Shown: positions 39,511 to 54,785 of the stretch, piece after piece | How the letters are laid out: each line of letters starts with the position of its first letter | Position numbering within the stretch: position 1 is the stretch's first letter | Position numbers and translations under genes: made by a program | Assembly (NCBI GenBank): GCA_045590395.1 | Contig: JAZNQX010000063.1 | Location: 5,135-69,134 of the forward strand | DNA from: Acutalibacteraceae bacterium | Lineage (GTDB): Bacteria; Bacillota; Clostridia; Oscillospirales; Acutalibacteraceae | Reading direction: 5' to 3' | DNA: 64,000 bases | Notes under the pieces: generated by a model | What the model was told of the DNA's origin: nothing | The model's input: the letters and a program-made list of their open reading frames with translations, nothing else | The model's database searches: none

Positions 39511-39586
39511 GATCCATTAGCTCAGCCGGTAGAGCACATGACTTTTAATCATGGTGTCCGGAGTTCGATTCTCCGATGGGTCACCA
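39511..39586 (+). tRNA. tRNA-Lys (anticodon UUU); CCA is encoded
   Basis: GATCCATTAGCTCAGCCGGTAGAGCACATGACTTTTAATCATGGTGTCCGGAGTTCGATTCTCCGATGGGTCACCA forms a clean cloverleaf with anticodon loop CTTTTAA. Confidence 0.95.
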
Positions 39587-39619
39587 AAACCCGAAGCAAA
39601 AGCTTCGGGTTTCTTTTTT
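39587..39619 (+). terminator. Intrinsic terminator after tRNA-Lys
   Basis: AAACCCGAAGC-AAAA-GCTTCGGGTTT followed by CTTTTTT. Confidence 0.75.
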
Positions 39620-39633
39620 GTTCGATAATAAAA

Positions 39634-39785
39634 CGGAGAATCGAACTCTGAGAGAGTGAGCGGCGTTAAGAAAACAGTTCGGTGAACTGTTTTTAGACGC
39701 GAAGTGTGAGACGGGTACTGTTCGCAAAGCGAACGGTCGTCGAGGACGGAATGTGCGAAGCTCATTCTTCTCCGATGGGTCACCA
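39634..39785 (+). repeat. tRNA-linked conserved module, Lys copy. Order: antisense T-arm fragment, hairpin+U-run, two-tier hairpin, exact 18-nt T-loop-to-CCA copy
   Basis: CGGAGAATCGAACTC (39634-39648) is the reverse complement of the tRNA-Lys T-arm. 39768-39785 is identical to 39569-39586. The internal blocks are shared with 8770-8931 on the minus strand. Confidence 0.6.
39696..39785 (+). other. 90-nt tRNA-Lys-like element / displaced tRNA-Lys 3' fragment ending in ...TTCTCCGATGGGTCACCA
   Basis: Same length and architecture as 8770-8859: a 5' heptamer (GACGCGA, 5/7 complementary to ATGGGTC), a 7-nt linker, the conserved hairpin at 39710-39741, a T-stem-like CGGAA/CTCCG around an 18-nt insert, an acceptor 3' strand and ACCA. 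Confidence 0.45.
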
Positions 39786-39786
39786 G

Positions 39787-39818
39787 AAAAAACGACTTGT
39801 TAAAACAAGTCGTTTTTT
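39787..39818 (+). terminator. Intrinsic terminator closing the tRNA-Lys-linked module
   Basis: AAAAAACGACTTGT-TAAA-ACAAGTCGTTTTTT. Confidence 0.7.
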
Positions 39819-39820
39819 AG

Positions 39821-39989
39821 TTATATTTGCCTACGGCAAGTTATATTGCTGTGCAGTTATATTCGGCTTACGCCGAGTGATATTGTGCTCCGCACAGTTT
39901 TATGGCAAATATAATATCACTAAAACCAAAGGTTTTAATATCACTTTTGACTTGTCAAAAATATCACTCCATCGAAGATGGAATATCAC
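39821..39989. repeat. Array of 7-mers (4x T[T/G]ATATT, then 4x the complement-orientation ATATCAC) that alternate exactly with unrelated short palindromes
   Basis: Right half: ATATCAC units at 39914, 39938, 39961 and 39983, separated with no spare bases by the palindromes TAAAACCAAAGGTTTTA, TTTTGACTTGTCAAAA and TCCATCGAAGATGGA. Left half: TTATATT at 39821, 39841 and 39857, and TGATATT at 39878, separated by shorter palindromes. Confidence 0.75.
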
Positions 39990-40088
39990 TGAGAGAGAAC
40001 AGCATCATTATGCAAATCATTGAAAAATATTGATTTGAGTTATCATTGATATAAAAAAACTGGTTTTAAAAATTTTTTCAAAAAACCC

Positions 40089-40117
40089 TTGACAACTTAA
40101 AAATATGGTGCTATACT
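40089..40117 (+). promoter_or_regulatory. Putative sigma-A promoter of T-box leader 1
   Basis: TTGACA, 17 nt, TATACT. Confidence 0.65.
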
Positions 40118-40136
40118 CTTTTCATACTTAATAAAA

Positions 40137-40400
40137 GCTGTGACGAAGACGGTCAAGAGTTTGTATTTTCAGAGAGCCGGTGGTTGCTGAAAACCGGTAA
40201 TAGAAATTCTTAAAAGACCCATCCCTTCCGAGCCGGAAGTCCGAAAGGTTATCCTAGTAGACGCTTCCCGTGATTGCTGCGTAAAGGCATAGGAATTGTT
40301 TGATTCCAAGAGTGGCGGAAAATTTCCGCAATTTGAGTGGTACCGCGAGTGTATTTTCACACCCGTCTCAAAGTTTCTTTGAGATGGGTGTTATTTTTTT
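40137..40400 (+). promoter_or_regulatory. T-box riboswitch leader 1; tentative specifier AUC (Ile) at 40221-40223
   Basis: K-turn base GCTGTGACGAAG...CTTCCGAGC, an AGAGAG bulge, the distal loop CCGGTGGTTGCTGAAAACCGG, the T-box AATTTGAGTGGTACCGCG (40330-40347), and a terminator at 40360-40390 plus a U-run. Confidence 0.9.
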
Positions 40401-40423: not shown

Positions 40424-42691
40424 ATGAAAACCAATACTGCAAAAGAGCAACTATTAGAGATAGCTCTGCGAATTAGAGAAATGCGCGAGATTATGGGCTG
40501 GTCTATTGCAGAAATGGCTTCTAAAACGGAAGTCAGCGAGGAAAAATATATTTCTTACGAAAGTGCTGAAGCTGACATACCTTTTTCATTTATTCATAAG
40601 TGTGCATTGTGCTTTGATGTAGAGCTTACCGAGCTTTTAGAGGGACACTCTGCTCGTCTTTCAACCTATACTGTAACACGAAAGGGAAAGGGTCAGGCAA
40701 CCGCTAAAGAAGACGGCATCGATATTAAAAACCTTGCCCCTAAGTTCAGAGATAAAATTGCAGAGCCTTACTGGGTAAAATATGAATATTCTGCCGCTCA
40801 GCAAAATAAACCTATACAGCTTTCTACCCACTCGGGACAGGAATTTGACCTTATAATGAGCGGTTCTCTTAAGGTTCAGGTCGGAAATCATATTGAAATT
40901 TTAAACGAGGGCGACAGCATTTATTATAACAGCTCTACTCCTCACGGTATGATAGCTGTAGGCGGAAGTGACTGTGTTTTCTGTGCTGTTGTTCTTCCCG
41001 GCGAAGAAGTAAAGGAAGAAACGGTGCGTCGCAGTATTGTTTCTGCTAAAAATTCAGAAGCACTTGTTTGCGAAAAGTTCCTACAAACTACCGAAAACGA
41101 AAACGGCGAGCTTTTAGATATCAAATTTAAAAATACCGATGAATTCAACTTTGGCTTTGACATTGTTGACGGTATTGCAGATAAATATCCTGAAAAACTT
41201 GCTATGCTTCATATAGACAGAGAAAAGAAGGAAAGACGCTTTACCTTTAAGGATATAAAGCGTGCTTCTAATCAGTGCGCTAACTACTTTACTTCTCTCG
41301 GTATCAAGAGGGGAGATAAAGTAATGCTGGTGCTCAAACGTCATTATCAGTTCTGGTTCTGTATGGTGGCTCTTCACAAAATCGGCGCTGTGGCTATTCC
41401 TGCTACTAATCAGCTTAAAGAGCATGATTTTGAATACCGTTTCAATGCGGCAGGTGTTAACACCCTTGTTTGTACTGCCGACGGTGATACTGCAGAAATT
41501 GCCGAGCGCGCCGCCGCTAATTGTAAGAGCGTTAAAAACCTTGTGCTTGTTAACGGAAAACGCGAGGGTTGGCACGATTTTGACAGCGAATATAAACTGT
41601 TTTCGGGCAAATTTGAAAGAGAAGAAAACGCTTCAGCAGGTGAAGATACCGCCCTTATGTTCTTTACTTCGGGAACTACGGGTAATCCTAAAATGGCGGC
41701 TCATAAGCATACCTACGCTTTAGGCCATTTTGTTACCGCAAAATATTGGCATTGTTGCGAAAGAGACGGTTTACACCTTACTATTTCTGATACAGGTTGG
41801 GGTAAATCACTCTGGGGTAAGCTTTACGGTCAGTGGCTTTGCGAGGGCGCCGTATTTGTATACGACTTTGACCGCTTTGATGCAGATGAGATTCTGCCTA
41901 TGTTTGCAGAGTACAACATCACAACCTTCTGCGCACCTCCTACAATGCTTCGTATGCTTGTAAAGAGTGACCTTTCAAAATATGACCTTTCCTCAATCAA
42001 TCATATGACCACTGCAGGTGAGGCGCTGAATCCTGAAGTATTCCGTCAGTTTGAAGAAGCAACGGGACTTCAGATAATGGAGGGCTTCGGTCAGACCGAA
42101 ACTACCCTTACCATTGCAAACCTTTGCGGAACTACCCCCAAGGTTGGCGCTATGGGTAAGGCTTCTCCTCAGTATGATGTTGATATTGTTGACCTTGACG
42201 GTAATCCTGTTGCCGACGGTGAAGTAGGCGAAATAGTTGTTCATACTAAGGACGGCGTTCCCTGCGGACTGTTTAAAGAGTATTATCTTGACGAAGAAAA
42301 AACAAATGATGCTTGGCACGACGGTATGTACCATACAGGTGATACCGCTTGGCGAGATGAGGACGGATATTTCTGGTATGTAAGCCGTATTGATGATGTA
42401 ATTAAGTCTTCGGGTTACCGTATCGGACCCTTTGAAATTGAAAGCGTTATTATGGAACTTCCTTATGTTCTTGAATGCGGTGTATCTGCTGCACCCGACG
42501 AAGTAAGAGGTCAGGTTGTAAAGGCAAGTATCGTACTTGTTCCCGGAACCGCTCCTACAGAAGAGCTTAAGAAAGAAATCCAAAACTATGTAAAAGAGCA
42601 TACCGCACCTTACAAATATCCGAGAATAGTTGTGTTTAAGGACGAACTTCCCAAAACTATTAGCGGAAAAATTCAGCGAAATAAACTGTAA
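40424..42691 (+). CDS. Fusion protein: N-terminal XRE-type HTH + cupin domain (about aa 1-200) joined to an AMP-forming medium/short-chain acyl-CoA synthetase (ACSM/MACS-like)
   Basis: 755 aa. HTH: LRIREMREIMGWSIAEMASKTEVSEEKYISYE. Cupin: GQEFDLIMSGSLKVQVG...GDSIYYNSSTPHGM. ANL motifs: FFTSGTTGNPKMAAH, SDTGWGK, GFGQTE, YHTGDTAWRDEDGYFWYVSRIDDVIKSSGYRIGPFEIE and SGKIQR. Confidence 0.85.
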   Translation: MKTNTAKEQLLEIALRIREMREIMGWSIAEMASKTEVSEEKYISYESAEADIPFSFIHKCALCFDVELTELLEGHSARLSTYTVTRKGKGQATAKEDGIDIKNLAPKFRDKIAEPYWVKYEYSAAQQNKPIQLSTHSGQEFDLIMSGSLKVQVGNHIEILNEGDSIYYNSSTPHGMIAVGGSDCVFCAVVLPGEEVKEETVRRSIVSAKNSEALVCEKFLQTTENENGELLDIKFKNTDEFNFGFDIVDGIADKYPEKLAMLHIDREKKERRFTFKDIKRASNQCANYFTSLGIKRGDKVMLVLKRHYQFWFCMVALHKIGAVAIPATNQLKEHDFEYRFNAAGVNTLVCTADGDTAEIAERAAANCKSVKNLVLVNGKREGWHDFDSEYKLFSGKFEREENASAGEDTALMFFTSGTTGNPKMAAHKHTYALGHFVTAKYWHCCERDGLHLTISDTGWGKSLWGKLYGQWLCEGAVFVYDFDRFDADEILPMFAEYNITTFCAPPTMLRMLVKSDLSKYDLSSINHMTTAGEALNPEVFRQFEEATGLQIMEGFGQTETTLTIANLCGTTPKVGAMGKASPQYDVDIVDLDGNPVADGEVGEIVVHTKDGVPCGLFKEYYLDEEKTNDAWHDGMYHTGDTAWRDEDGYFWYVSRIDDVIKSSGYRIGPFEIESVIMELPYVLECGVSAAPDEVRGQVVKASIVLVPGTAPTEELKKEIQNYVKEHTAPYKYPRIVVFKDELPKTISGKIQRNKL

Positions 42692-42712
42692 TGTTAATTT
42701 TATCTTTAAATA

Positions 42713-42741
42713 TTGACAATATTCCAAAGTTGTGATACAAT
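42713..42741 (+). promoter_or_regulatory. Putative sigma-A promoter of T-box leader 2 (extended -10)
   Basis: TTGACA, 17 nt, (TGa)TACAAT. The -35 lies inside the near-palindrome AATATTGACAATATT. Confidence 0.6.
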
Positions 42742-42756
42742 AAGACGGATATTAAA

Positions 42757-43019
42757 GGCTTTGACGAAGAGTGCGCTTAATTCTTCCTTGCAGAGAAACG
42801 GTGGTTGGTGAAAACCGTTAGGTTGGAATTTTGTGTTTGTAGCTTCTGAGCCGGGGAGAAGAAAGTATTTAATATCAGTAGAACTCCTCCGTGATTGCTG
42901 CGTTAATGCATAGGAATTGTTAGATTCCAAGAGTGGCGGATTTCCGCAATTTGAGTGGTACCGCGGGTGTGAATATCGGCACTCGTCTCAAAGGCATTAC
43001 TTTGGGACGGGTGTTTTTT
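42757..43019 (+). promoter_or_regulatory. T-box riboswitch leader 2; putative specifier GUA (Val) at 42839-42841
   Basis: GGCTTTGACGAAG...CTTCTGAGCC K-turn helix, AGAGAA bulge, distal loop ACGGTGGTTGGTGAAAACCGT, T-box AATTTGAGTGGTACCGCG (42948-42965), and a terminator at 42980-43013 plus a U-run. Confidence 0.9.
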
Positions 43020-43047
43020 ACGTCCTAACGGAAATGGAGATAAACTT

Positions 43048-45336
43048 ATGGAACAGATTACAGGGCTTGATTTTAAAATCAAGGAAATGGCGGGGCGTAT
43101 CAGAGAGCTTCGCGAAATCGAAGGCTTAACAACGGAACAAATGGCAGAAAAAACCGCTGTTTCGGTGGCTGAGTATATAGAATGTGAAAATGGCAACAGT
43201 GACTTAAACTTTGCCTTTATTTACCGTTGCGCACTTGCTCTTAACGTAAATGTTACCGATATTATTGAGGGTTACAGCCCTACACTTAAATCATATACCG
43301 TTACCCGTGCAGGCTCAGGCCAGAAAATTGCACAGGCTCACGGTATGACCTATTATAACCTTGCTTATGCGTTTAAAAACCGTATTGCCGAGCCTCTTTA
43401 TGTTCGCAGTATATACAGTGAAGAAGCGCAGTCAAGGGATATTGAGCTAACTACCCACGCCGGTCAGGAGCTTGATATAATTATTGAAGGTCAGCTTATG
43501 GTTCAGGTAGGCGAGCATAAGGAAATACTGGGCCCCGGGGACAGCATTTACTATGACAGTGACGTTGCCCACGGTATGATAGCAATAGGCGGTAAGGACT
43601 GTCTTTTCTACGCTATTGTTTTAAACCCCACAGGTGAGCCTATTCCCGAGCTTTTACCCGCTAAAACTATTCTTGAGCCTAAAGCGGTTAAAAAGGATAA
43701 TAAAGAAAGAGTATACCATAAATATATAGATGTTACCGAGAACGATAACGGTACACCTGTTTCTGTAAAGTTTAAAAATACCGATAAATTCAATTTCGGT
43801 TTCGATGTTGTTGATGAAATTGCTCACAAAAGCCCTGAAAAACGTGCAATGCTTCATATATCAAGGGACGGTACAGAGCGTAGCTTTACCTTTAAGGATA
43901 TTGAAAAAGCTTCTAACCAGTGCGCCAACTACTTTAAATCTCTTGGTATTAAAAAGGGCGACCGCGTTATGTTGGTGCTTAAACGCCATTATCAGTTTTG
44001 GTTCTCAATTATTGCACTTAATAAGCTGGGTGCCATAGCTATACCTGCTACAAATCAACTTGTTGAACACGATTTTGATTACCGCTTTAAATCTGCAGGT
44101 GTTAGTACAATTATCTGTACTGCAGATGGTGATACAGCATATCAGGCTGAGAAAGCTGCTGAGAATAATCCTCAGCTTGTAAACAAGCTTATAGTTAATG
44201 GAGCGCGTGAAGGTTGGAGAAGCTTTGACGAGGAATATATCCTTTACAGCACCCACTATAAGCGTACCGAGGATACCGCCTGCGGTGACGATTTAATGCT
44301 TATGTACTTTACTTCGGGTACATCGGGCTATCCCAAAATTGCCGCACACAGCTATAAGTATCCTCTCGGACACTTCCATACTGCAAAATATTGGCACTGT
44401 GTTGACCCTGACGGACTTCACTTTACAATATCTGATACAGGCTGGGCAAAGGCTACCTGGGGCAAAATTTACGGTCAGTGGCTTTGCGAGGCAGGTATAT
44501 TCGTTTATGATTTTGACCGCTTTGATGCTGCAGAAATACTGCCCATGTTTGCAAAGCACAATATAACCACCTTCTGTGCTCCTCCTACAATGCTCCGTAT
44601 GCTTATAAAGCAGGATATAGCACAATATGATTTTTCCTCTGTTAAGCATATGACAACGGCAGGTGAGGCGCTTAATCCCGAGGTTTACCGTCAGTTTGAA
44701 AAAATTACAGGGCTTCAGATTCTCGAGGGCTTCGGCCAGACCGAAAGCACTATGATTATCGGTAATATGACGGGCGCACCCCATAAAATAGGTTCTATGG
44801 GTAAACCTGCACCTATATACGATGTTCATATTGTAGATAGCGATGGCAAAGATGTTCCTGCAGGTGAAACAGGTGAAATCGTTATAAATATTGAAAACGG
44901 TCTTCCTTGCGGACTGGCTACCTGTTACTACGGTGATGAAGAAAAAACAAAAGAAACCTGGCGCGACGGTTATTACCATACAGGAGATACCGCTTGGCGT
45001 GATGAAGACGGCTTCTACTGGTATGTAGGTCGCGTTGACGATGTTATTAAGTCTTCGGGCTACAGAATTGGGCCTTTCGAAATAGAAAGTGTTATTATGG
45101 AGCTTCCCTTCGTTCTTGAGTGCGGTGTATCTGCTGCACCGGATGAAGTAAGAGGTCAGGTTGTAAAGGCAAGTATTGTACTTGTTCCCGGAACCGAGCC
45201 TTCAGAAGAACTAAAGAAACAAATCCAGAAATATGTTAAGGATAAGACTGCACCTTATAAATATCCTCGTATAGTAGTATTTAAAGATAGTCTTCCTAAA
45301 ACTACCAGCGGAAAAATTCAAAGAAATAAGTTATAA
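43048..45336 (+). CDS. Paralogous fusion protein: XRE-type HTH + cupin joined to an AMP-forming acyl-CoA synthetase (ACSM/MACS-like)
   Basis: 762 aa with the same architecture as 40424-42691. The C-terminal roughly 120 aa are nearly identical to the paralogue, while the N-terminal sensor part and the middle of the synthetase are clearly diverged. Confidence 0.85.
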   Translation: MEQITGLDFKIKEMAGRIRELREIEGLTTEQMAEKTAVSVAEYIECENGNSDLNFAFIYRCALALNVNVTDIIEGYSPTLKSYTVTRAGSGQKIAQAHGMTYYNLAYAFKNRIAEPLYVRSIYSEEAQSRDIELTTHAGQELDIIIEGQLMVQVGEHKEILGPGDSIYYDSDVAHGMIAIGGKDCLFYAIVLNPTGEPIPELLPAKTILEPKAVKKDNKERVYHKYIDVTENDNGTPVSVKFKNTDKFNFGFDVVDEIAHKSPEKRAMLHISRDGTERSFTFKDIEKASNQCANYFKSLGIKKGDRVMLVLKRHYQFWFSIIALNKLGAIAIPATNQLVEHDFDYRFKSAGVSTIICTADGDTAYQAEKAAENNPQLVNKLIVNGAREGWRSFDEEYILYSTHYKRTEDTACGDDLMLMYFTSGTSGYPKIAAHSYKYPLGHFHTAKYWHCVDPDGLHFTISDTGWAKATWGKIYGQWLCEAGIFVYDFDRFDAAEILPMFAKHNITTFCAPPTMLRMLIKQDIAQYDFSSVKHMTTAGEALNPEVYRQFEKITGLQILEGFGQTESTMIIGNMTGAPHKIGSMGKPAPIYDVHIVDSDGKDVPAGETGEIVINIENGLPCGLATCYYGDEEKTKETWRDGYYHTGDTAWRDEDGFYWYVGRVDDVIKSSGYRIGPFEIESVIMELPFVLECGVSAAPDEVRGQVVKASIVLVPGTEPSEELKKQIQKYVKDKTAPYKYPRIVVFKDSLPKTTSGKIQRNKL

Positions 45337-45360: not shown

Positions 45361-46026
45361 ATGATAGGTAAAAAAAGACTTACGCTTTTTTGCGGACATT
45401 ACGGAAGCGGTAAAACAAATATAGCCGTTAATGTTGCAATTAAGCTTAAAGAGAGCTATAATAATATCGCCCTTGCTGACCTTGACATAGTAAATCCTTA
45501 TTTCAGAACAAAGGACAGCAGTGAAGAGCTTAAAAGCAAGGGTATAAGGCTTATCTGTTCTGAGTATGCAAACTCTAATGTAGATATTCCGGCTCTCCCA
45601 CAGGATGTGTACGCCATTACCGATGATAAAACACTTAAATGTGTACTTGATATCGGCGGTGATGACAGAGGAGCACTGGTTCTGGGCAGAATTTCGGATA
45701 AAATTTCAGAGGAAAATGACTTCGAAATGCTTATGGTTATAAATTCGTTTCGTCCCTTAACCAGAGATACCGAGTCTTTAATAGAGGTTTTTTCTGAAAT
45801 AGAGGCTGCGGCAAAAATTAAATTTACAGGCCTTGTTAACAATTCAAACCTTGGTGAAGAAACCACGGCAGAGGATGTTTTAAGCTCTGTCAACTATGCT
45901 AATGATATATCAAAAGCCACAGGCCTTCCTGTAGTTATGACCTGTGTAAAAGAAGACCTGTATGAGTCTTTAAAGGACAAGATACCTAATCTTTTGGGAC
46001 TTAAACTGCAGAAGAAAATTTTGTAG
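45361..46026 (+). CDS. P-loop NTPase of unknown function (SIMIBI-like; Walker A GHYGSGKT)
   Basis: 221 aa: FCGHYGSGKTNIAVNVA, DLDIVNPYFR and GGDDRG. It sits between the acyl-CoA synthetase and the oxidoreductase genes. Confidence 0.6.
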   Translation: MIGKKRLTLFCGHYGSGKTNIAVNVAIKLKESYNNIALADLDIVNPYFRTKDSSEELKSKGIRLICSEYANSNVDIPALPQDVYAITDDKTLKCVLDIGGDDRGALVLGRISDKISEENDFEMLMVINSFRPLTRDTESLIEVFSEIEAAAKIKFTGLVNNSNLGEETTAEDVLSSVNYANDISKATGLPVVMTCVKEDLYESLKDKIPNLLGLKLQKKIL

Positions 46027-46082: not shown

Positions 46083-46289
46083 TTGGCAAAATTAACATTT
46101 AAAACCGACAACTGTAAGGGTTGCGGCCTTTGCGTAGATGCCTGTCCCAAGCAGGTACTTATTCTCGCAAATGACAAAATCAACAAAAAGGGACATCACC
46201 CTGTAGAAGCGGCAAATATTGACGCTTGTATTGGCTGTGCTTTCTGTGCAACAATGTGTCCTGACTGTATCATTAAGGTAGAAAGGTAG
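46083..46289 (+). CDS. 2-oxoacid:ferredoxin oxidoreductase delta subunit (2x[4Fe-4S] ferredoxin)
   Basis: Two CxxCxxCxxxCP motifs (CKGCGLCVDACP, CIGCAFCATMCP). The TTG at 46083 lies 8 nt after AAGGAG and is preferred over the ORF-track GTG, which overlaps the RBS. Confidence 0.8.
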   Translation: MAKLTFKTDNCKGCGLCVDACPKQVLILANDKINKKGHHPVEAANIDACIGCAFCATMCPDCIIKVER

Positions 46290-47362
46290 TGAGTAAAGTG
46301 GCAGATAAAGTTTTGATGAAGGGTAACGAAGCTATTGCCGAAGCCGCTATTGTTGCAGGCTGTCGTCATTACTTCGGTTATCCTATAACTCCCCAGACAG
46401 AAATTGCCGCTTATATGGCAAAACGTATGCCCAAAATCGGCGGAACCTTCCTTCAGGCTGAAAGTGAAATCGCCGCTATCAATATGGTATACGGCGTTGC
46501 TTCTACCGGTAAGCGTGTTATGACCTCTTCTTCAAGCCCCGGAGTTTCCCTTAAGGGTGAAGGCCTTTCTTATATTGCAGGTGCTGACCTTCCGTCCCTT
46601 ATAGTAAACGTTCAGCGCGGTGGCCCCGGCCTTGGCGGTATTCAGCCCTCTCAGTCTGACTATTTTCAGGCTACAAAGGCAGGCGGACACGGCGACTTTA
46701 AAATGATAGTTCTTGCCCCCGCCTCTGTTCAGGAAATGGCTGACCTTACTGTTAAGGGCTTTGAACTCGCTGACAAATACCGTATGACATCTATGATTCT
46801 TGCCGACGGTACTATGGGACAGATGATGGAGCCTGTTTCTCTCGATTTTGAGGTATCAGAGAAAATAGATAAGCCCTGGGCTACCACAGGAACCAAAATG
46901 GAGCGCGAGCATAATATTGTTAACTCTCTTTTCCTTGTTCCCGAAGAACTTGAAAAATCAAACTTTGAGCGTTTTGAACGCTATAAGTACATAGAGGAAA
47001 ACGAAACCATGTGGGAAGAGTATCTTATGGACGATGCAGAAATTTGTATTGCCGCATTCGGTATTGCCGCCCGTGTTTCTAAAAACGCTATAAATGAGGC
47101 AAGAAAGCAGGGTATTAAGGTTGGTCTTATCCGTCCTATTACTCTCTGGCCTTTCCCCACAAAAGCATTTAAAGAGGCTGCCGAAAAGGTAAGCAGTATT
47201 ATATCTGTTGAGCTTTCTATGGGACAGATGATAGAGGACGTTCGTCTTGCAAGTGAGAGCAAGGTTCCCGTAACCCTTTGCAACCGTGCAGGCGGTATGA
47301 TTCCTTCTCCCGAACAAGTACTCGACGCAATTAAAGAAGCAGCAAAAGGAGGCGCAAAATAA
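46289..47362 (+). CDS. 2-oxoacid:ferredoxin oxidoreductase alpha subunit (VorB/KorA type)
   Basis: 357 aa: LMKGNEAIAEAAIVAGCRHYFGYPITPQTEI is typical of the OFOR alpha N-terminus. Confidence 0.88.
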   Translation: MSKVADKVLMKGNEAIAEAAIVAGCRHYFGYPITPQTEIAAYMAKRMPKIGGTFLQAESEIAAINMVYGVASTGKRVMTSSSSPGVSLKGEGLSYIAGADLPSLIVNVQRGGPGLGGIQPSQSDYFQATKAGGHGDFKMIVLAPASVQEMADLTVKGFELADKYRMTSMILADGTMGQMMEPVSLDFEVSEKIDKPWATTGTKMEREHNIVNSLFLVPEELEKSNFERFERYKYIEENETMWEEYLMDDAEICIAAFGIAARVSKNAINEARKQGIKVGLIRPITLWPFPTKAFKEAAEKVSSIISVELSMGQMIEDVRLASESKVPVTLCNRAGGMIPSPEQVLDAIKEAAKGGAK

Positions 47363-48117
47363 TGGTAGTTTTTGATAAACCGCATGCACTTACCGATGTG
47401 CCTATGCATTATTGCCCCGGCTGTACTCACGGTATTGTTCACCGTCTTGTTGCTGAGGTTATTGACGAACTCGGTATTGAGGGCAAAACCATTGGTATAG
47501 CCCCTGTTGGCTGTTCCGTTATGGCGTATAATTATTTCGGTTGTGATATGATAGAGGCCGCTCATGGACGCGCACCTGCCGTTGCTACAGGTGTTAAGCG
47601 CGCTGACCCTGAAAATCATATAGTATTTACCTATCAGGGTGACGGTGACCTTGCTTCTATCGGTATGGCAGAAACCGTACACAGTGCCGCAAGAAATGAA
47701 AACATAACCGTTATATTCATTAACAATGCTATATACGGTATGACAGGCGGACAGATGGCTCCGACCTCTCTTCCCGGTCAGGTAACACAGACCTCACCCT
47801 ACGGCAGAGATGTAAACCATTGCGGCTATCCCGTTAAGGTTTGTGAAATGCTCTCAAAGCTTGACGGCCCTGAGTATCTCGAAAGAGTCACAGTTAACAA
47901 TGTTAAAAATGTAAAGAACGCTAAGAAGGCAATTAAAAAGGCTTTCCAGAATCAGATAGACGGTAAGGGATTTTCTCTTGTTGAGGTTGTGTCAAGTTGT
48001 CCTACCAACTGGGGTATGACACCAAAACAGGCACTTGAGTGGATTGACGAGAAAATGATTCCTTATTATCCGCTTGGCGTTTATAAAGACAGAAGCGCAG
48101 AAAAGGGGGAAGAATAA
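47362..48117 (+). CDS. 2-oxoacid:ferredoxin oxidoreductase beta subunit (TPP-binding)
   Basis: YCPGCTHG and the TPP motif GDGD...NNAIYGMTGGQ. Confidence 0.88.
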   Translation: MVVFDKPHALTDVPMHYCPGCTHGIVHRLVAEVIDELGIEGKTIGIAPVGCSVMAYNYFGCDMIEAAHGRAPAVATGVKRADPENHIVFTYQGDGDLASIGMAETVHSAARNENITVIFINNAIYGMTGGQMAPTSLPGQVTQTSPYGRDVNHCGYPVKVCEMLSKLDGPEYLERVTVNNVKNVKNAKKAIKKAFQNQIDGKGFSLVEVVSSCPTNWGMTPKQALEWIDEKMIPYYPLGVYKDRSAEKGEE

Positions 48118-48650
48118 TGGCTACTAAACAGTTTTTGTTTTCGGGATTTGGCGGTCAGGGTATTCTTTTCGCCGGTAAGTTTATGGCTTATAAAGGCCTT
48201 ATTGATGATAAGCAGGTAAGCTGGCTTCCGTCATACGGCCCCGAAATGCGCGGCGGTACAGCAAGCTGTAGCGTAATTGTCAGTGACGAGCCCGTGGGTT
48301 CTCCCATAGTATCAAAACCTGATGTGCTTATCGCTATGAATCTTCCTTCTCTTGATAAATATGAGTCTACCGTAAAGAAAGGCGGTATGATTTTCCTTGA
48401 CTCAACCCTTATTGAGCGCAAGGTAGAAAGAGATGACGTTAAGGTTTTCTATATTCCTGCCACAAAGCTGGCAAGTGATAATAATATGCCTACCCTTGCT
48501 AATATGATTATAGTAGGTAAGGTATTAAGTGAACTTAACGATTTCCAAAAAGAAAGCGTTGACGCTGCTCTTTCAAAGGTTATTTCTGCAAAACGTGCAG
48601 ATATGGCTGATATAAACCGCAAGGCTATGCAGATAGGCGCTGAAAACTAA
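48117..48650 (+). CDS. 2-oxoacid:ferredoxin oxidoreductase gamma subunit
   Basis: [14 protein letters not shown]...[10 protein letters not shown]. Confidence 0.85.
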
Positions 48651-48671: not shown

Positions 48672-49736
48672 ATGAATATTTCTATTACTAAAACTGCCTG
48701 TCCTAAAGAAAAACCCGACAGCAGTGTACTGGGCTTTGGAAAATATTTTACCGACCATATGTTTATGATGGATTATTCAAGAGATAAGGGTTGGTATAAT
48801 GCAAGAATTGTTCCCTTTGAGAATATTTCTTTGCATCCTGCCTCTACTGTTCTTCATTACGGCAGTGAGATTTTTGAGGGCCTTAAGGCTTATAGACGCA
48901 AAGACGGTAAGGTACAGCTTTTCCGTCCTATAGAGAATATCCGTCGTATGAACAGCTCTGCAGAAAGACTTTGTCTGCCTCAGATTCCTGAAGAGGACGC
49001 TATGCAGGCTCTTAAAACCTTTGTCGCTTTAGAGCAGGACTGGACTCCCTCTGCGGCAGGTACTTCACTTTATCTTCGTCCCTTTATGTTCGGTAATGAC
49101 GAAACCTTAGGTGTTCACGCTGTACATAACGCAACCTTTGTTATTATTGCTTCACCTGTAGGCAGCTACTATAAAGAGGGCATTAACCCGGTTAAAATTA
49201 TGATAGAAGACCAGGATGTTCGTGCTGTGCGCGGAGGTACCGGTTATGCTAAATGTGGCGGTAACTATGCAGCAAGTAACAGAGCAGGTGAGCGCGCTGA
49301 ACAGCAGGGCTATTCACAGGTACTCTGGCTTGATGGTGTTGAGAGAAAGTATATTGAAGAGGTTGGCGCTATGAACGTAATGTTCAAAATCAACGGCGAA
49401 ATCGTTACTCCTATGCTTTCGGGCTCAATTCTCCCCGGTATTACAAGAAAATCCTGCCTTGAGGTGCTAAGAAGCGAGGGCTATAAGGTAAGTGAAAGAC
49501 TGCTTAGCATTGATGAGCTTGAAGAGGCTATGAACAACGGTACTCTTGAAGAGGCTTGGGGTTGCGGAACTGCTGCTGTAGTTTCTCCTATTGGTGAACT
49601 TTGCTACAAGGGTGTAAAGCACCAGGTTAGCGGCGGCAAAATCGGTGAAGTTACTCAGCACCTTTACGATACCCTTACATCTATTCAGTGGGGTAATGCT
49701 GAGGATAAGTTCAACTGGACCGAGCAAATCGACTAA
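48672..49736 (+). CDS. ilvE: Branched-chain amino acid aminotransferase (fold type IV)
   Basis: 354 aa: HYGSEIFEGLKAYR, LYLRPFMFG, GGTGYAKCGGNYA and GITR. Confidence 0.92.
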   Translation: MNISITKTACPKEKPDSSVLGFGKYFTDHMFMMDYSRDKGWYNARIVPFENISLHPASTVLHYGSEIFEGLKAYRRKDGKVQLFRPIENIRRMNSSAERLCLPQIPEEDAMQALKTFVALEQDWTPSAAGTSLYLRPFMFGNDETLGVHAVHNATFVIIASPVGSYYKEGINPVKIMIEDQDVRAVRGGTGYAKCGGNYAASNRAGERAEQQGYSQVLWLDGVERKYIEEVGAMNVMFKINGEIVTPMLSGSILPGITRKSCLEVLRSEGYKVSERLLSIDELEEAMNNGTLEEAWGCGTAAVVSPIGELCYKGVKHQVSGGKIGEVTQHLYDTLTSIQWGNAEDKFNWTEQID

Positions 49737-49750
49737 TTTTAAAAAAGTGG

Positions 49751-49779
49751 TTGACAAACTAAAATTGCGGTGATATAAT
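49751..49779 (+). promoter_or_regulatory. Putative sigma-A promoter of T-box leader 3 (extended -10)
   Basis: TTGACA, 17 nt, (TGa)TATAAT. Confidence 0.65.
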
Positions 49780-49796
49780 TATCTCAAATTTTTAAA

Positions 49797-50079: not shown

Positions 50080-51459
50080 ATGAGAAAAGTAAGAATTGCA
50101 GATACAACTCTTTGCAGTGGTGAAGTAAGCTACAGTTTCAAGGAAAAAATTGAAATTGCAAGACAGCTTGAAAATCTAAAAATTGATATAATAGAGCTTG
50201 GCGCTATTGAAAACGCAAGAACTGATATTTTACTTGTAAAAACTATTTCTTCTTTTGTTAAATCAGGTATCCTCTCTGTTGCAGGCGGTATGACAAAAGA
50301 AAGCATAGACAATGCTGCCTCCGCGCTTTCAAATGCGGTTAATAAAAGGATAAGAATTGAACTTCCCGTGTCCCCCGTGGGTATGGAATATGTTTGTCAT
50401 AAAAAGCCTGATAAAATGCTTCCCTTTATTGAATCTCTTGTTGGTGCCGCAAAAGAAAGGGTAGAGGATGTCGAGTTCTGTGCCATTGATGCTACCCGTG
50501 CTGAAGAAGACTTTCTTAAATCTGCCATCAAAACTGCTGTAAATGCCGGTGCTACATCGGTTTCGGTTTATGACAGCGCCGCAGAAACAATGCTGCCCGA
50601 TGAGTTTGCTGATTTTGCCCGTAAGGTTTGCAAAAAGGCAGATGTAGAGGTTGGCGCATTTTGCGATAACAAAAACGGTATGGCAGTAGCCGATGCCGTA
50701 CTTGCTGTAAGAAATGGTGTTTCTGTTGTTAAGACAGCAGTAGGTACAGGTGCCGTTCCTCTTGAAACCTTTGCAGAAATGATAAATAACTGCGGTAATT
50801 CCTTTGGTATATATGCAGATATAAATTATACAAATTTACACCGTATTATAAAACAGATAAACTGGGTTAAAGAAAACTCAAAGGATGGCAAAAACAGTGT
50901 AAGCAGTGAAAGTATAGATAATACCGTCGCTCTTGACAAAGATTCTGATCGCACCGCTGTTGCTACTGCAGTGCTGAAACTCGGCTATGATTTAAGTGAT
51001 GAGGACAGCGGTAAGGTTTATGATGAATTTGTGCGTGTGGCAGAAAAGAAAAATGTTGGCTATAAAGAGCTTGATGCTATAGTTGCAAGCGTAGCCTTGC
51101 AGGTTCCTGCCACATATAAGCTTATCAATTATGTTGTAAACACAGGTAATATTATTTCTTCAAGCTCTCAGGTTGCCCTTGAAAAAGAAGGCAAAACCTA
51201 TCAGGGTGTTTCTATCGGTAGCGGTCCTATTGATGCGGCTTTCCTTGCTATTGAGCAGATAATAGGAACCCATTTTGAACTGGATGATTTCCAGATTCAG
51301 TCGGTAACAGAAGGTAAAGAGGCTATGGGTAGCGCTCTTGTAAAACTGAGAGCAAACGGAAAGCTTTATTCGGGTAACGGTATTTCCACCGACATTATAG
51401 GCGCAAGTATTCGCGCATATCTTAGTGCTGTAAACAAGATAGTTTACGAGGAGGCATAA
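50080..51459 (+). CDS. 2-isopropylmalate synthase (LeuA/HMGL) homologue with substituted catalytic residues but a retained C-terminal LeuA regulatory domain
   Basis: 459 aa. DTTLCSGE replaces DTTLRDGEQ, AFCDNKNG replaces VHCHNDLG, DSAA replaces DTVG, and GTGAVPLE replaces GIGERAGN. The C-terminal GSGPIDAAFLAIEQI...GKEAMGSALVKL is the LeuA_dimer/R domain. Confidence 0.75.
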   Translation: MRKVRIADTTLCSGEVSYSFKEKIEIARQLENLKIDIIELGAIENARTDILLVKTISSFVKSGILSVAGGMTKESIDNAASALSNAVNKRIRIELPVSPVGMEYVCHKKPDKMLPFIESLVGAAKERVEDVEFCAIDATRAEEDFLKSAIKTAVNAGATSVSVYDSAAETMLPDEFADFARKVCKKADVEVGAFCDNKNGMAVADAVLAVRNGVSVVKTAVGTGAVPLETFAEMINNCGNSFGIYADINYTNLHRIIKQINWVKENSKDGKNSVSSESIDNTVALDKDSDRTAVATAVLKLGYDLSDEDSGKVYDEFVRVAEKKNVGYKELDAIVASVALQVPATYKLINYVVNTGNIISSSSQVALEKEGKTYQGVSIGSGPIDAAFLAIEQIIGTHFELDDFQIQSVTEGKEAMGSALVKLRANGKLYSGNGISTDIIGASIRAYLSAVNKIVYEEA

Positions 51460-51461
51460 AA

Positions 51462-53966
51462 ATGAAATTCTCTTTTTCTACAAAAGGATGGCATAATATA
51501 TCCTTTGAAGAATTTTGTGAAATAGCAAAAGACCTTAAGTTTGAGGGAATTGAACTTCATAATATAAATAATCCTCTTTTTACTGATAAGGACGGCGCTT
51601 TTCACGAGCATACAGCGGCAGGAACAATAAGAAAGCTTTACGAAAAGAAGCTTTCTTTACCCTGCATTGATACTATTTGCAATATAGCAGATAATGATGA
51701 ATTTGATAAAAGCGTGGATGAAATTCTTGCCTGTATTGATATTGCAAAGCGCCTTAAAATACCCTTTATAAGACTTCACGCCGGTATGGCAGAGGATATC
51801 GAAAAGGCTACAGCCTGCGTGGTTTCTATTATTGAAAAAACCATATCCGATGCCGAGGAAAACGGGGTTACATTGCTTCTTGAAACCTCGGGTATCTTCT
51901 CTAATACCGAGATTCTCAGAGATACTCTTGAACTCTTTGCAAGTGATAGTCTTGCGGCTTCGCTTGATATGTATTCTGCATATTTCATAGGTAAAGAAGA
52001 TGCTGAACAGATTATTAAAAATCTGGGTGCTTATGTAAAACACGTTCATGTAAGGGACGCGCAAAAAGTTAACGGTAAATTGGAAAATTGTCTTATCGGT
52101 GAGGGCGAAATGCCTATTAACGATATGATGCTGGCTCTTCGCAGTGTAAATTATGACGGATATTTCTCACTGATATGGGACCCCTCATGGTGTGAGGAGC
52201 TTGACGATATGGAGATTATATTCTCTCATTTTGTCAACTTTATGAAGCAGTATGGTGATATTTCTAAAAACGAAACTACACTTTACTACAACAAAACTCA
52301 TACGGGAAAATTTGTGTGGAAAAAGGATTTACTTATTGACCTTACCTTCCCACAGGTGCTTGACAGAATGGCAGAGGAATTTCCTGACCAGTATGCATTT
52401 AAGTACACCACCCTTGATTATACCCGTACCTACAGCCAGTTCAGAGATGACGTTGATACCTTTGCCAGAGCCCTTGTTTCTATGGGCGTAAAGGCAGGTA
52501 CCAAGGTAGCTGTATGGGCTTCGAATGTGCCTCAGTGGTATATTTCCTTCTGGGCGGCTACAAAAATAGGTGCCGTACTTGTTACGGTTAACACCGCTTA
52601 TAAAATTCACGAGGCTGAGTATCTGCTTAAGCAGTCGGATACCCATACCCTTATTATGACTCAGGGAAGCAAGGATACAAACTACGGCGAAATTATAGCC
52701 CGTCTTTGTCCTGAGCTTGAAACTATGAAGTCAGGAAGCGCTCTTCACAGCAAAAAACTTCCTTTCCTTCGTAATGTAATTACCGTAGGCTTTAAACAGA
52801 AGGGCTGTATGACCTGGAATGACGCCTTGGCACGTTCTATTGATACCCCTGTGGAAGAGGTTTACAGAATGGCGGCGGCTGTTGATAAGGACGACGTTTG
52901 TAATATGCAGTATACTTCGGGTACTACAGGATTTCCTAAGGGTGTTATGCTTACTCACTATAATGTTGTAAATAACGGAAAGTATATCGGCGACCATATG
53001 GATCTTTCTACCGCAGACAGAATGATGATACAGGTGCCTATGTTCCATTGCTTTGGTATGGTACTTTCTATGACCGCGTCTATGACTCATGGTACAACTA
53101 TGTATCCTATGCCGTATTTTTCACCAAAGCCTTCTCTCGCTTGTGTTCATAATGACCATTTTCCCGCCTTTATCGGCGTACCTACCATGTTTATTGCTAT
53201 GATGCAGCACCCTGATTTTGAAAAAACCGACTTTTCTTATATGCGTGTGGGCATTATGGCGGGCTCTAACTGTCCTGCCGACCTTATGAAACAGGCAACA
53301 GAGGTTATGAATATGAAGGAAATTGTATCTGTTTACGGTCAGACCGAAGCGTCACCCGGTTGCACTATGAGTAGCTGGTATGATTCTCTTGAGGTTAGAA
53401 CCGAAACCGTAGGCAGCGCATTTGCTAATGTTGAGTGTAAGATAATCGACCCCGAAACAGGGGAGGACTGCCCTGACGGAGTTAACGGTGAGTTTGTTGC
53501 CCGTGGCTATAATATAATGAAGGGCTATTATAAAATGCCTAAGGCTACAGCGGCGGCTATTGATAAGGACGGTTGGCTTCACACAGGCGACCTAGCTTGC
53601 AGACGCCCTGACGGAAACTATCTTATAACAGGTCGTCTTAAGGATATGATTATCAGAGGCGGAGAAAACATTTATCCTAAGGAAATTGAGGAATTTATAT
53701 TCACTAATCCTAAGGTAAGTGATGTTCAGGTTATAGGTGTTCCCGATAAGCAGTACGGCGAAGAAATTATGGCCTGTATTATTCTTAAAGAGGGCGAAAC
53801 TATGACCGAAGAAGAAATAAAGGGTTATATTTCCGCCAATATGGCGCGTCATAAGGTTCCTCGCTATATTGATTTTGTAGATAAGTTCCCAATGAATGCG
53901 GCAGGTAAAATACTTAAGTACAAAATGAGAGAGGAAGCCGCCAAAAAACTGGGACTTGATGAGTAA
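51462..53966 (+). CDS. Fusion protein: xylose-isomerase-like TIM barrel (sugar phosphate isomerase/epimerase family, about aa 1-270) joined to an AMP-dependent acyl-CoA synthetase/ligase
   Basis: 834 aa. The N-terminus has FEGIELHN...LLLET...HVHVRD TIM-barrel features. The C-terminus has YTSGTTGFPKGVMLTH, VYGQTEASP, TGDLACRRPDGNYLITGRLKDMIIRGGENIYPKEIE and AGKILK. Confidence 0.8.
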   Translation: MKFSFSTKGWHNISFEEFCEIAKDLKFEGIELHNINNPLFTDKDGAFHEHTAAGTIRKLYEKKLSLPCIDTICNIADNDEFDKSVDEILACIDIAKRLKIPFIRLHAGMAEDIEKATACVVSIIEKTISDAEENGVTLLLETSGIFSNTEILRDTLELFASDSLAASLDMYSAYFIGKEDAEQIIKNLGAYVKHVHVRDAQKVNGKLENCLIGEGEMPINDMMLALRSVNYDGYFSLIWDPSWCEELDDMEIIFSHFVNFMKQYGDISKNETTLYYNKTHTGKFVWKKDLLIDLTFPQVLDRMAEEFPDQYAFKYTTLDYTRTYSQFRDDVDTFARALVSMGVKAGTKVAVWASNVPQWYISFWAATKIGAVLVTVNTAYKIHEAEYLLKQSDTHTLIMTQGSKDTNYGEIIARLCPELETMKSGSALHSKKLPFLRNVITVGFKQKGCMTWNDALARSIDTPVEEVYRMAAAVDKDDVCNMQYTSGTTGFPKGVMLTHYNVVNNGKYIGDHMDLSTADRMMIQVPMFHCFGMVLSMTASMTHGTTMYPMPYFSPKPSLACVHNDHFPAFIGVPTMFIAMMQHPDFEKTDFSYMRVGIMAGSNCPADLMKQATEVMNMKEIVSVYGQTEASPGCTMSSWYDSLEVRTETVGSAFANVECKIIDPETGEDCPDGVNGEFVARGYNIMKGYYKMPKATAAAIDKDGWLHTGDLACRRPDGNYLITGRLKDMIIRGGENIYPKEIEEFIFTNPKVSDVQVIGVPDKQYGEEIMACIILKEGETMTEEEIKGYISANMARHKVPRYIDFVDKFPMNAAGKILKYKMREEAAKKLGLDE

Positions 53967-53969
53967 TCG

Positions 53970-54785
53970 GTGATAAAAATGGTTCAAAACAAATTTTATA
54001 CAGTAGATTCTCACTGTCATATCTATCCCGAAAAAATTGCTCAAAAGGCTGTAGAGGGTACTGATAATTTTTATAGTACAACTGCGGCAGGTCTGGGTAC
54101 GGTTTCTGACCTTTTGCATATGGGAAGCGAGGCAGGGGTTGACCACTTTATTGTTCAGTCTGTGGCAACAACGCCAAAGCAGGTAAAAAGCATTAACGAG
54201 TTTATTTCCAAAACCGTTTCAGAGCATAATGGTAAATTAACCGGTCTTGGCACACTTCATCCCGAAAGTGAAGACATAAAGGGTGATGTTGAGCATCTTT
54301 TAGAGTTGGGCCTTAAAGGCGTTAAGCTTCACCCCGACATACAGCGCTTCGAAAGCGACTGTGAAAGGTGTATGCAAATCTACGAGCTGTGTGAAAAGAA
54401 TAATCTTGTATTACTAATGCACACAGGTGATTACAGGTACGACTATTCAAACCCTAACAGAATAATTCCAATACTGGAAACCTTTAAAAAGCTGACCTTT
54501 ATCGGCGCACACCTTGCAGGTTGGTCGGTGTGGCAAGAAGCCTATGAAAAGCTGTCATATTATGATAATCTTTATGTAGACTGTTCATCTTGCTTTGGCT
54601 TTACCGAAAGGGAGGAAGTATACGCCCTTATGAAGAAATACGGGGCTGACAGAATACTTTTCGGTACCGATTATCCTATGTGGTCACCGAAAAGCGAAAT
54701 GGAAACATTTTTATCCCTTGATTTCACCGATGAAGAAAAAGCAAAAATCTTAGGTCTTAATGCTAAAAAAATATTTAATTTATAG
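53970..54785 (+). CDS. Amidohydrolase-2 (metal-dependent TIM-barrel hydrolase/decarboxylase) family protein
   Basis: DSHCHIYPE near the N-terminus, then ...KLHPD..., ...MHTGD... and FGTDYPMW. The start may instead be the ATG at 53979 (RBS GGTGA). Confidence 0.75.
   Translation: MIKMVQNKFYTVDSHCHIYPEKIAQKAVEGTDNFYSTTAAGLGTVSDLLHMGSEAGVDHFIVQSVATTPKQVKSINEFISKTVSEHNGKLTGLGTLHPESEDIKGDVEHLLELGLKGVKLHPDIQRFESDCERCMQIYELCEKNNLVLLMHTGDYRYDYSNPNRIIPILETFKKLTFIGAHLAGWSVWQEAYEKLSYYDNLYVDCSSCFGFTEREEVYALMKKYGADRILFGTDYPMWSPKSEMETFLSLDFTDEEKAKILGLNAKKIFNL

Follow-up and report, generated by a model that had tools for sequence, protein, structure and literature searches.

An XRE-cupin module as a putative ligand-sensing partner of T-box-controlled acyl-CoA synthetases in gut and rumen Clostridia

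Two neighbouring genes, ACS1 and ACS2, in the genome of an Acutalibacteraceae bacterium encode acyl-CoA synthetases of the ANL superfamily that begin with a helix-turn-helix (HTH) of the XRE type followed by a cupin barrel. They lie on the forward strand of the window, by which we mean the whole stretch of 64,000 nucleotides (nt) that was analysed (GenBank assembly GCA_045590395.1, contig JAZNQX010000063.1, positions 5,135 to 69,134), and each is preceded by a T-box riboswitch leader. We propose, with a probability of about one half, that a former XRE-cupin regulator has turned into a ligand-sensing partner of the ligase, and we infer both its allosteric action and its ligand. The module most likely acts on the enzyme, because its HTH keeps the fold without the DNA surface and because the faces formed by helices 4 and 5 and by the cupin are conserved. 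The components (XRE-cupin protein, ANL ligase, T-box regulon) are all of familiar kinds, and their combination is uncharacterised.

The N-terminal HTH-cupin is descended from XRE-cupin regulators. In the mechanism that we envisage, the module, whose conserved faces are those of helices 4 and 5 and of the cupin barrel with the His/Glu/His residues, would act on the enzyme. The cupin pocket would bind a small molecule and tune the activity or assembly of the ligase, the most natural ligand being the end product of the pathway or its 2-oxo acid. This would add fast control at the protein level on top of the slower control by the T-box.

Architecture of the fused proteins and of their split relatives

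The two proteins and their domains are laid out as follows (aa, amino acids):

40424..42691, forward strand: ACS1, 755 aa, ATG start, predicted 2-methylbutyrate-CoA ligase
40424-40648, forward strand: ACS1 HTH-like domain, aa 1-75
40649-41002, forward strand: ACS1 cupin, aa 76-193
41003-41071, forward strand: ACS1 linker, aa 194-216, poorly conserved
41072-42688, forward strand: ACS1 ANL acyl-CoA synthetase, aa 217-755
43048..45336, forward strand: ACS2, 762 aa, ATG start, predicted isobutyrate-CoA ligase
43048-43275, forward strand: ACS2 HTH-like domain, aa 1-76
43276-43626, forward strand: ACS2 cupin, aa 77-193
43627-43707, forward strand: ACS2 linker, aa 194-220, disordered
43708-45333, forward strand: ACS2 ANL acyl-CoA synthetase, aa 221-762

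A preliminary description of this DNA, made by a model from the letters and a list of open reading frames, had given both frames these positions and lengths, and the peptides that it quoted are present: WSIAEMASKTEVSEEKYISYE is aa 26-46 of ACS1, LTTEQMAEKTAVSVAEYIECE is aa 27-47 of ACS2, and the cupin string G.E.D.I..G.L.VQVG......GDSIYY.S...HGM is found in both. It was right to read the N-terminal ~195 aa as a complete XRE-HTH and cupin unit homologous to PuuR-type regulators (the unit aligns with Escherichia coli PuuR, and the cupin His/Glu/His is common to both) and as joined in frame to an entire ANL synthetase whose catalytic motifs are intact. In the domain scan that it suggested, Pfam models for AMP-binding (PF00501; E 3e-66 for ACS1 and 1e-61 for ACS2), AMP-binding_C (PF13193; E ~2e-20 in both) and Cupin_2 (38.9 bits for ACS1 and 42.3 bits for ACS2, gathering score 27.2) were matched. 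HTH_19 reached 35.1 bits in ACS2, above its gathering score of 30.2, but only 28.7 bits in ACS1, slightly under it, and HTH_3 stayed under 23 in both (20.8 and 21.6 bits), so that the HTH assignment is weak by hidden Markov model score for ACS1.

Structural comparison backs the assignment. An AlphaFold model of ACS2 residues 1-215, built with 111 homologues, has a mean pLDDT of 85.8 and consists of the five helices of the XRE fold (aa 6-74) followed by a beta-barrel. Its Foldseek matches are structures of HTH plus cupin, the best being 1Y9Q and the next HppE, Psf4, HEPD and MPnS. In full-length models (pTM 0.67; five models with mean pLDDT of 64 to 79), the linker at aa 196-216 has a pLDDT below 50.

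ACS1 and ACS2 are 64% identical overall. The N-terminal modules share 50% identity and the ligase parts 72%, the stronger divergence of the N-termini having been noticed earlier. A frameshift or assembly artefact is ruled out by one database protein that is 100% identical and by thousands of full-length homologues with the same architecture. When one genome per species was scanned, relatives turned up in at least 596 species genomes; the best 80 of these all come from gut or rumen Clostridia (Acutalibacteraceae, Ruminococcaceae, Oscillospiraceae), and the orthologous leaders of these 80 related loci served to check the T-box specifiers given below. Automatic annotations already show the domains, under the names “AMP-binding protein” or “cupin domain-containing protein”. 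One fused family member of 758 aa (P0170) has a degenerate phosphate-binding A3 motif, with MFLQSYSYGMAKP replacing FTSGTTGxPK, and, judged by this motif, may be a paralogue that has lost catalysis but retained the HTH-cupin.

In other Clostridia the module is encoded by a gene of its own. When residues 1-211 of ACS2 were searched against 1.84 billion representative proteins, the fused matches were 33-65% identical, and many stand-alone proteins, 184-196 aa long, showed 30-46% identity. Eight stand-alone relatives, 30-55% identical to the N-terminal module and including those of the cultured Hydrogenoanaerobacterium saccharovorans, Ligaoa zhengdingensis and Zongyangia hominis, were sampled for their surroundings; all eight lie 1-38 nt upstream of a co-oriented AMP-binding gene of 548-559 aa. 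The ligase of Hydrogenoanaerobacterium aligns from its residue 8 onward with ACS1 from residue 217, at 59% identity, and the fusion junction is therefore a former gene boundary. This junction is a linker with 41-59% identity within orthologues and low model confidence. On these gene arrangements, the HTH-cupin is to be regarded as a dedicated partner of the MacsMa-like ligase family, present either as a small upstream gene or fused by a flexible linker. T-box leaders of the Ile type stand at five split loci and at one member of a second large clade of fused proteins.

In the split proteins the N-terminal hairpin of the cupin (ACS2 positions 94-102) holds a basic loop that hardly varies, P-I-x-R-R-x-G-F-x-Y. 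This loop is lost in both paralogues of the window (QKIAQAHGMTY and QATAKEDGIDI) and kept in some other fused clades, and may form a contact surface that took on another role upon fusion.

Constraint on the module, DNA binding and the proposed role

Averaged over 111 family members, the net charge is -7.7 for the HTH (range -12 to -2) and -2.7 for helix 3. Helix 3 follows the consensus x-E-E-Y-x-x-x-E-x-G, and helix 2 begins with E-E. Over the same aligned columns E. coli PuuR carries +2 and SutR +4, both being validated XRE-cupin repressors, with helices 2 and 3 basic or polar in character (SQRRAAELS and THSAISTIEQD in PuuR, SLSRLAEAT and SKAMLGQIERN in SutR). The constraint on the separate elements, measured as mean conservation within 55 ACS1 and 65 ACS2 orthologues, is as follows:

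canonical DNA-contact positions: 0.45-0.47 (whole domain 0.73-0.80)
helix 1: 0.78-0.87
loop between helices 3 and 4, with helix 4: 0.86-0.95
helix 5: 0.80-0.93
cupin: 0.83-0.84

The contact positions are thus the least conserved and helices 4 and 5 score high, which points to selection on the face opposite the one that would read DNA.

Operators were sought as well. The palindromes bound by characterised XRE-cupin repressors measure 15-25 bp and lie at adjacent promoters, from about -20 to +10 (PMC12724383, PMC7901475). Among 47 ACS1 and 68 ACS2 promoters, the only recurrent exact inverted repeat with 6-nt arms was a T6/A6 tract at ACS1, and the best palindromes with 8-nt arms, sought in the promoter-proximal region from -29 to +20, showed no enrichment over shuffles (6.07 versus 5.80 and 5.80 versus 5.76). 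The spacer upstream of ACS2 holds a partly conserved stretch, CCAAAGTTGTGATA, which lacks palindromic symmetry and disappears in more distant loci. The module has probably lost DNA binding while retaining the HTH fold, and we think it rather likely, from charge, constraint and promoter sequences, that it is not a conventional DNA binder, with distal targets or an unusual mode of binding possible.

Some features of the upstream regions deserve description in their own right. The T6/A6 tract has the form T6-N(0-2)-A6, lies 16 nt upstream of the -35 element in ~26 of the 47 ACS1 promoters (in the window at ~40060-40088) and is absent from ACS2 promoters; it is of low complexity, formally palindromic and most simply an UP element. 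Farther upstream, 39819-39990 holds AGTTATATT three times together with AGTGATATT, then four copies of the inverse AATATCACT spaced 22-24 nt apart. This array was considered as an array of binding sites and rejected, being absent upstream of ACS1 in 56 other loci. The 3´ end of a tRNA-Lys gene (39569-39589) is duplicated 199 nt downstream (39768-39788) with 20 of 21 bases, in the manner of an att site, and since the array adjoins this duplication it is probably the relic of an element that integrated at the tRNA gene, with arm-type sites. At a split locus (L085, ~5950-5990) a perfect palindrome, GGTTC-TG-GAACC, lies directly downstream of the -10 element, and TTCCAAA and TTTGGAA flank the promoter. 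It is the sole operator-like feature at any HTH-cupin/ligase locus and occurs only in L085 and L086, which are copies of one region.

The cupin itself is under strong constraint. H137, E141 and H175, at the positions of cupin metal ligands, are invariant in 111 family members, split and fused alike, and the identity of the cupin within orthologues (75%) equals that of the N-domain of the ligase; purifying selection on the module is clear from these sequence comparisons. Sites at which each paralogue group is fixed for a residue of its own account for 6.6% of positions in the HTH, 4.3% in the cupin and 1.0% in the ligase N-domain and are absent from the ligase C-domain, so that most paralogue-specific change sits in the module, where such positions are 4 to 6 times denser than in the ligase. 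The earlier suggestion that the paralogues handle different things fits both this density and the differing T-box specifiers (Ile versus Val). The pocket of the cupin in 1Y9Q contains an amino acid, D-methionine (PMC7901475), so that pockets of this kind are able to accommodate amino acids.

Several points weigh against a ligand sensor that acts on the enzyme. Net charge and variable contact residues are indirect evidence, and the HTH of the XRE repressor DdrO is slightly acidic too in the alignment. The cupin His/Glu/His residues also occur in PuuR and cannot, for that reason, separate a sensor on an enzyme from a transcription factor. Residues E96, I99, I101 and Y116 of the ACS1 cupin do not recur in the remaining Ile-type clades, P0139 and the split forms, so that no residue pattern tracks Ile versus Val, and ACS3, a further synthetase in a similar operon of the window, has a different N-terminal domain. 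The most remote split pairs lack a T-box; the module is thus not tied to amino-acid salvage as such, and its pairing with the ligase is older and broader than the link to salvage. Of the AlphaFold check suggested earlier, the XRE five-helix fold and the beta-barrel were obtained (pLDDT 85.8), but a confident interdomain arrangement or fixed interface, sought in the full-length model, was not (pTM 0.67). All experimentally characterised XRE-cupins are DNA-binding local repressors of adjacent metabolic genes (PMC7901475), and the layout of the split form, in which a small regulator-like gene heads the operon of its target enzyme, also fits the pattern of a repressor.

The last two points, together with the true homology of the module to XRE-cupin repressors, speak for a trigger enzyme or autorepressor, in which the HTH would bind its own promoters or sites elsewhere (ilv/leu genes), gated by the cupin ligand or the acyl-adenylate in the manner of BirA, another adenylate-forming enzyme with an N-terminal HTH. 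A Pseudomonas aeruginosa acyl-CoA ligase has been reported as a non-canonical regulator (PMC12754631), and sequence elements that such a protein might use are at hand in the T6-N(0-2)-A6 element of the ACS1 promoters and in the GGTTC-TG-GAACC palindrome, found at the sole sampled split locus without a T-box. The former is of low complexity, UP-like and missing from ACS2 promoters, however, the repeat array upstream of ACS1 is not kept in other loci, and T-boxes already control transcription. With an acidic HTH in which Glu starts helices 2 and 3, with DNA-contact positions that are the least conserved of the domain within orthologues, and with no common or enriched palindrome in the usual operator region of XRE-cupins, a DNA-binding trigger enzyme fits worst among the three roles offered in the preliminary description, and we consider it unlikely.

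A purely structural role, as a scaffold for dimerisation or oligomerisation or as a decaying relic without ligand sensing, is distinctly improbable. It would agree with the dimeric state of XRE-cupin proteins (PMC7901475), with the flexible linker and with the likeness of the selected HTH faces, helices 4 and 5, to protein-protein surfaces; yet conservation in the cupin equals that in the catalytic domain, the residues of the cupin pocket do not vary, the module is kept over 30-100% identity in split and fused form, and the concentration of paralogue-specific positions in it is not expected of a plain scaffold.

The least probable alternative is a catalytic, metal-dependent cupin like HppE or Psf4 that would modify the acid or acyl-CoA (e.g. 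by isomerisation or epimerisation) and make the protein bifunctional: the invariant residues at metal-ligand positions, Foldseek matches to HppE, Psf4, HEPD and MPnS at E 1e-13 to 1e-9, the enzyme-like TIM barrel that ACS3 carries at the same position and the fit of pairing and repeated fusion with substrate channelling are offset by the presence of the triad in the repressor PuuR, which weakens the enzyme argument, by TM-scores to HppE of just 0.36-0.48, by a conversion of isobutyrate to valine that needs no extra chemical step, and by gut and rumen hosts that we infer to be obligate anaerobes, in which oxygen-dependent cupin chemistry is unlikely.

The proposal of a ligand-sensing partner that acts on the ligase can be taken further. 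A whole branch of XRE-cupin proteins might then serve as non-DNA-binding, ligand-sensing subunits or domains of ANL synthetases, with Ile and Val or their 2-oxo acids exerting feedback on the ATP-consuming entry step; we advance this more specific version tentatively.

T-box leaders and the predicted salvage pathway

The intergenic stretches that had been put forward as binding targets of the module turned out to be sigma-70-type promoters and T-box riboswitch leaders. The preliminary description overlooked the T-boxes, the reductive-carboxylation context of the genes and the existence of the module as a separate gene paired with a ligase gene. Around ACS1 and ACS2 the window contains the following elements:

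40089..40117, forward strand: ACS1 promoter, TTGACA-17-TATACT with TG extension, 11/12 consensus matches
40131..40373, forward strand: ACS1 T-box leader, specifier AUC (Ile), Rfam RF00230, 99.6 bits, E 1e-20
40359-40391, forward strand: terminator hairpin of the ACS1 leader
42713..42741, forward strand: ACS2 operon promoter, TTGACA-17-TACAAT with TG extension, 11/12 consensus matches
42752..42993, forward strand: ACS2 T-box leader, specifier GUA (Val), Rfam RF00230, 95.6 bits, E 1e-19
42978-43015, forward strand: terminator hairpin of the ACS2 leader
45361..46026, forward strand: CbiA/MinD-like P-loop protein, 221 aa, Pfam CbiA, E 1e-5
46083..46289, forward strand: ferredoxin-like delta subunit, 68 aa, TTG start, two CxxCxxCxxxCP (4Fe-4S) motifs in the translation
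46289..48650, forward strand: 2-ketoisovalerate:ferredoxin oxidoreductase, Pfam POR_N/PFOR_II, TPP_enzyme_C and POR
46289-47362, 47362-48117 and 48117-48650, forward strand: its alpha (VorB), beta and gamma subunits
48672..49736, forward strand: branched-chain amino acid aminotransferase, Pfam Aminotran_4, NCBIfam NF009897 483 bits (cut-off 307)
49751-49779, forward strand: promoter of the downstream operon
49792-50023, forward strand: downstream T-box leader, specifier CUC (Leu), RF00230, 133.3 bits
50015-50043, forward strand: terminator of the downstream leader
50080..54785, forward strand: operon under the Leu T-box, linked context outside the HTH-cupin finding
50080-51459, forward strand: LeuA-like synthase
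51462-53966, forward strand: ACS3, 834 aa, xylose-isomerase-like TIM barrel and AMP-binding
53970-54785, forward strand: Amidohydro_2 protein

The three leaders score above the RF00230 gathering score of 93, and their specifiers were read from covariance-model alignments. Each has a near-consensus promoter with TG extension ahead of it and a terminator hairpin at its end, and promoters resembling that of ACS1 also precede the orthologous leaders. A T-box core motif was found upstream of 51 of 54 ACS1 and 71 of 79 ACS2 orthologues. The AUC specifier is invariant in ~48 orthologous ACS1 leaders while adjacent bases vary; ACS2 leaders (n=71) have GUA in most cases and the synonymous Val codon GUC in three loci (L016, L021, L079); and the leaders of the LeuA-like genes alternate between CUC and CUG, both Leu, across loci. 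Downstream of ACS2 no further promoter or terminator of note precedes the aminotransferase gene, and the gene order ACS1-ACS2-CbiA-oxidoreductase-aminotransferase is kept in dozens of species genomes. The alpha subunit of the oxidoreductase scores 547.7 bits against the NCBIfam model VorB (cut-off 399).

The ligase part is closest to MacsMa of Methanosarcina acetivorans (PDB 3ETC; E 4e-179 over the whole length), whose preferred substrate is 2-methylbutyrate (PMC10455477). In alignment with 3ETC, both proteins have the ANL motifs A3 (TSGTxGxPK), A5 (GQTE), A7 (YHTGD), A8 (DDxIKxSGxxI) and A10 (PKTxSGK, with the catalytic Lys); the ACS1 translation reads FTSGTTGNPK, GQTE, YHTGD, DDVIKSSGYRI and PKTISGKIQR. 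The TAKYW motif, which in MacsMa includes the Trp of the acyl pocket, is conserved in both. In the motif DTGW(G/A)K downstream of the pocket Trp (G460/A467), Gly occupies the variable place in ACS1, in MacsMa and in the Ile-type split ligase, and Ala in ACS2. The best NCBIfam model is MbcS, the methylbutyrate/isobutyrate ligase of Staphylococcus aureus (PMC10026030), with 438.9 bits for ACS1 and 428.3 bits for ACS2, below its equivalog cut-off of 850. From the T-box specifiers, the homology to 3ETC and the G460/A467 difference, we predict 2-methylbutyrate as the substrate of ACS1 and isobutyrate as that of ACS2.

The likeness of the ligase part to MacsMa suggests that the two proteins are the entry enzymes by which 2-methylbutyrate and isobutyrate are salvaged into Ile and Val. 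As short branched-chain acyl-CoA synthetases, they would open a pathway in which the acyl-CoA is converted by reductive carboxylation into the 2-oxo acid (ketoisovalerate:ferredoxin oxidoreductase) and then into the amino acid (branched-chain aminotransferase). Uncharged tRNA-Ile would turn on ACS1, and uncharged tRNA-Val would turn on ACS2 together with the oxidoreductase and the aminotransferase. A sequence from branched-chain fatty acid through acyl-CoA and 2-oxo acid to amino acid is the classical route of the rumen (referred to in PMC7356843). Induction by uncharged tRNA, an AMP-forming ligase that is effectively irreversible, an oxidoreductase and a transaminase together argue for salvage, and we hold a salvage pathway under T-box control to be very likely, its substrates and direction being predicted.

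Other features of the locus may be noted. The CbiA-like protein is syntenic between ACS2 and the oxidoreductase genes in ~57 loci and has no NCBIfam match; it might serve in maturing or assembling the oxidoreductase. In the Leu operon, the LeuA-like synthase is short, divergent and below the NCBIfam cut-offs, a LeuA_dimer regulatory domain is encoded at the same locus, and the N-terminal TIM barrel of ACS3 is of the AP_endonuc_2 family. The trio of LeuA-like synthase, ACS3 and Amidohydro_2 protein adjoins the ACS1-ACS2 locus in at least 20 genomes and may be an uncharacterised route to leucine, e.g. from isovalerate.

Significance and comparison with known systems

Many fibre-degrading Clostridia of the rumen and gut need isobutyrate, 2-methylbutyrate and isovalerate, which are given as supplements in ruminant nutrition. 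To our knowledge, the enzymes that activate branched-chain fatty acids in these Clostridia, and the controls on them, are poorly defined. We found no paper on the fusion, on an obligate XRE-cupin/ligase pairing or on T-box control of such ligase/oxidoreductase operons, and a literature search on the genes of branched-chain fatty acid carboxylation gave nothing specific. The locus follows a scheme of T-box(Ile)-ligase, T-box(Val)-ligase-oxidoreductase-aminotransferase and T-box(Leu)-LeuA-like-ligase, in which the specificity of two paralogous ligases would be readable from their riboswitches and in which these ligases have an invariably present, uncharacterised partner domain. ANL enzymes are otherwise controlled mainly by lysine acylation. 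An allosteric sensor on the ligase would thus represent a new regulatory principle, or kind of allosteric domain, for these adenylate-forming enzymes and a clear case of a transcription-factor fold recruited to enzyme control. Feedback by the amino acid or its 2-oxo acid, if true, would identify the long-sought step of activation and regulation behind the branched-chain fatty acid requirement of rumen bacteria. Descriptions in the databases could also gain accuracy, since thousands of proteins are entered there as “XRE family transcriptional regulator” or “AMP-binding protein”.

The XRE-cupin regulators with which the module was compared are PuuR and SutR of E. coli, PauR, PsdR and ErfA of P. 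aeruginosa, DbuR of Pseudomonas putida and 1Y9Q of Vibrio cholerae. The module shares with them the two-domain layout, a size of ~185 aa, detectable homology and genetic linkage to the gene of a metabolic enzyme. It differs in the net charge of its HTH (-6 to -8 versus +2 to +4 in PuuR and SutR), in a recognition helix without basic or polar contact residues, in contact positions that are unconstrained within orthologues and in the lack of an operator at the promoters searched. Unlike in these regulators, moreover, its gene is always co-oriented and directly upstream of, or fused to, that of one enzyme family.

HppE, Psf4, HEPD and MPnS, enzymes that combine an HTH-like alpha domain with a Fe(II) cupin, match both domains at the level of the fold, with 17-20% identity and TM-scores of 0.36-0.48. 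Their HTH-like helical domain is not known to bind DNA, which makes them precedents for an XRE-like domain without such a role, and their metal site is a His-x3-Glu...His triad in the cupin (H138, E142 and H180 in HppE). They differ in being oxygen-using phosphonate enzymes of aerobes.

MacsMa and MbcS resemble ACS1 and ACS2 in that all ANL core motifs are present in the latter, but have no N-terminal HTH-cupin. MbcS feeds fatty-acid synthesis, whereas the T-box and the oxidoreductase and aminotransferase context of the ACS genes point to amino-acid synthesis. BirA, with other trigger enzymes such as PutA, serves as the model for the way in which a DNA-binding version could function, an N-terminal HTH and an adenylate-forming enzyme being joined in one chain. 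The HTH of BirA is winged and has a defined operator, and the enzyme has a fold like that of class II aminoacyl-tRNA synthetases, whereas ACS1 and ACS2 have the ANL fold; the trigger-like architecture is present in them, but a DNA-binding surface and an operator were not detected.

A parallel in logic is offered by the regulatory domain of LeuA and the ACT domains of AHAS and IlvA, where the first committed enzyme of a pathway carries, or pairs with, a small ligand-binding domain. These feedback domains differ in fold from the cupin of the ACS proteins (ACT versus cupin), for which feedback is proposed by analogy. A comparable arrangement was seen at another locus (L092, 5875-7633), in which a PaaK-like AMP-binding ligase (435 aa) adjoins a stand-alone ACT protein (143 aa) beside a DAHP synthase gene. 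Judged by its gene content, this is an analogous pair of a CoA ligase and a small, putatively amino-acid-binding protein in the context of aromatic amino acids.

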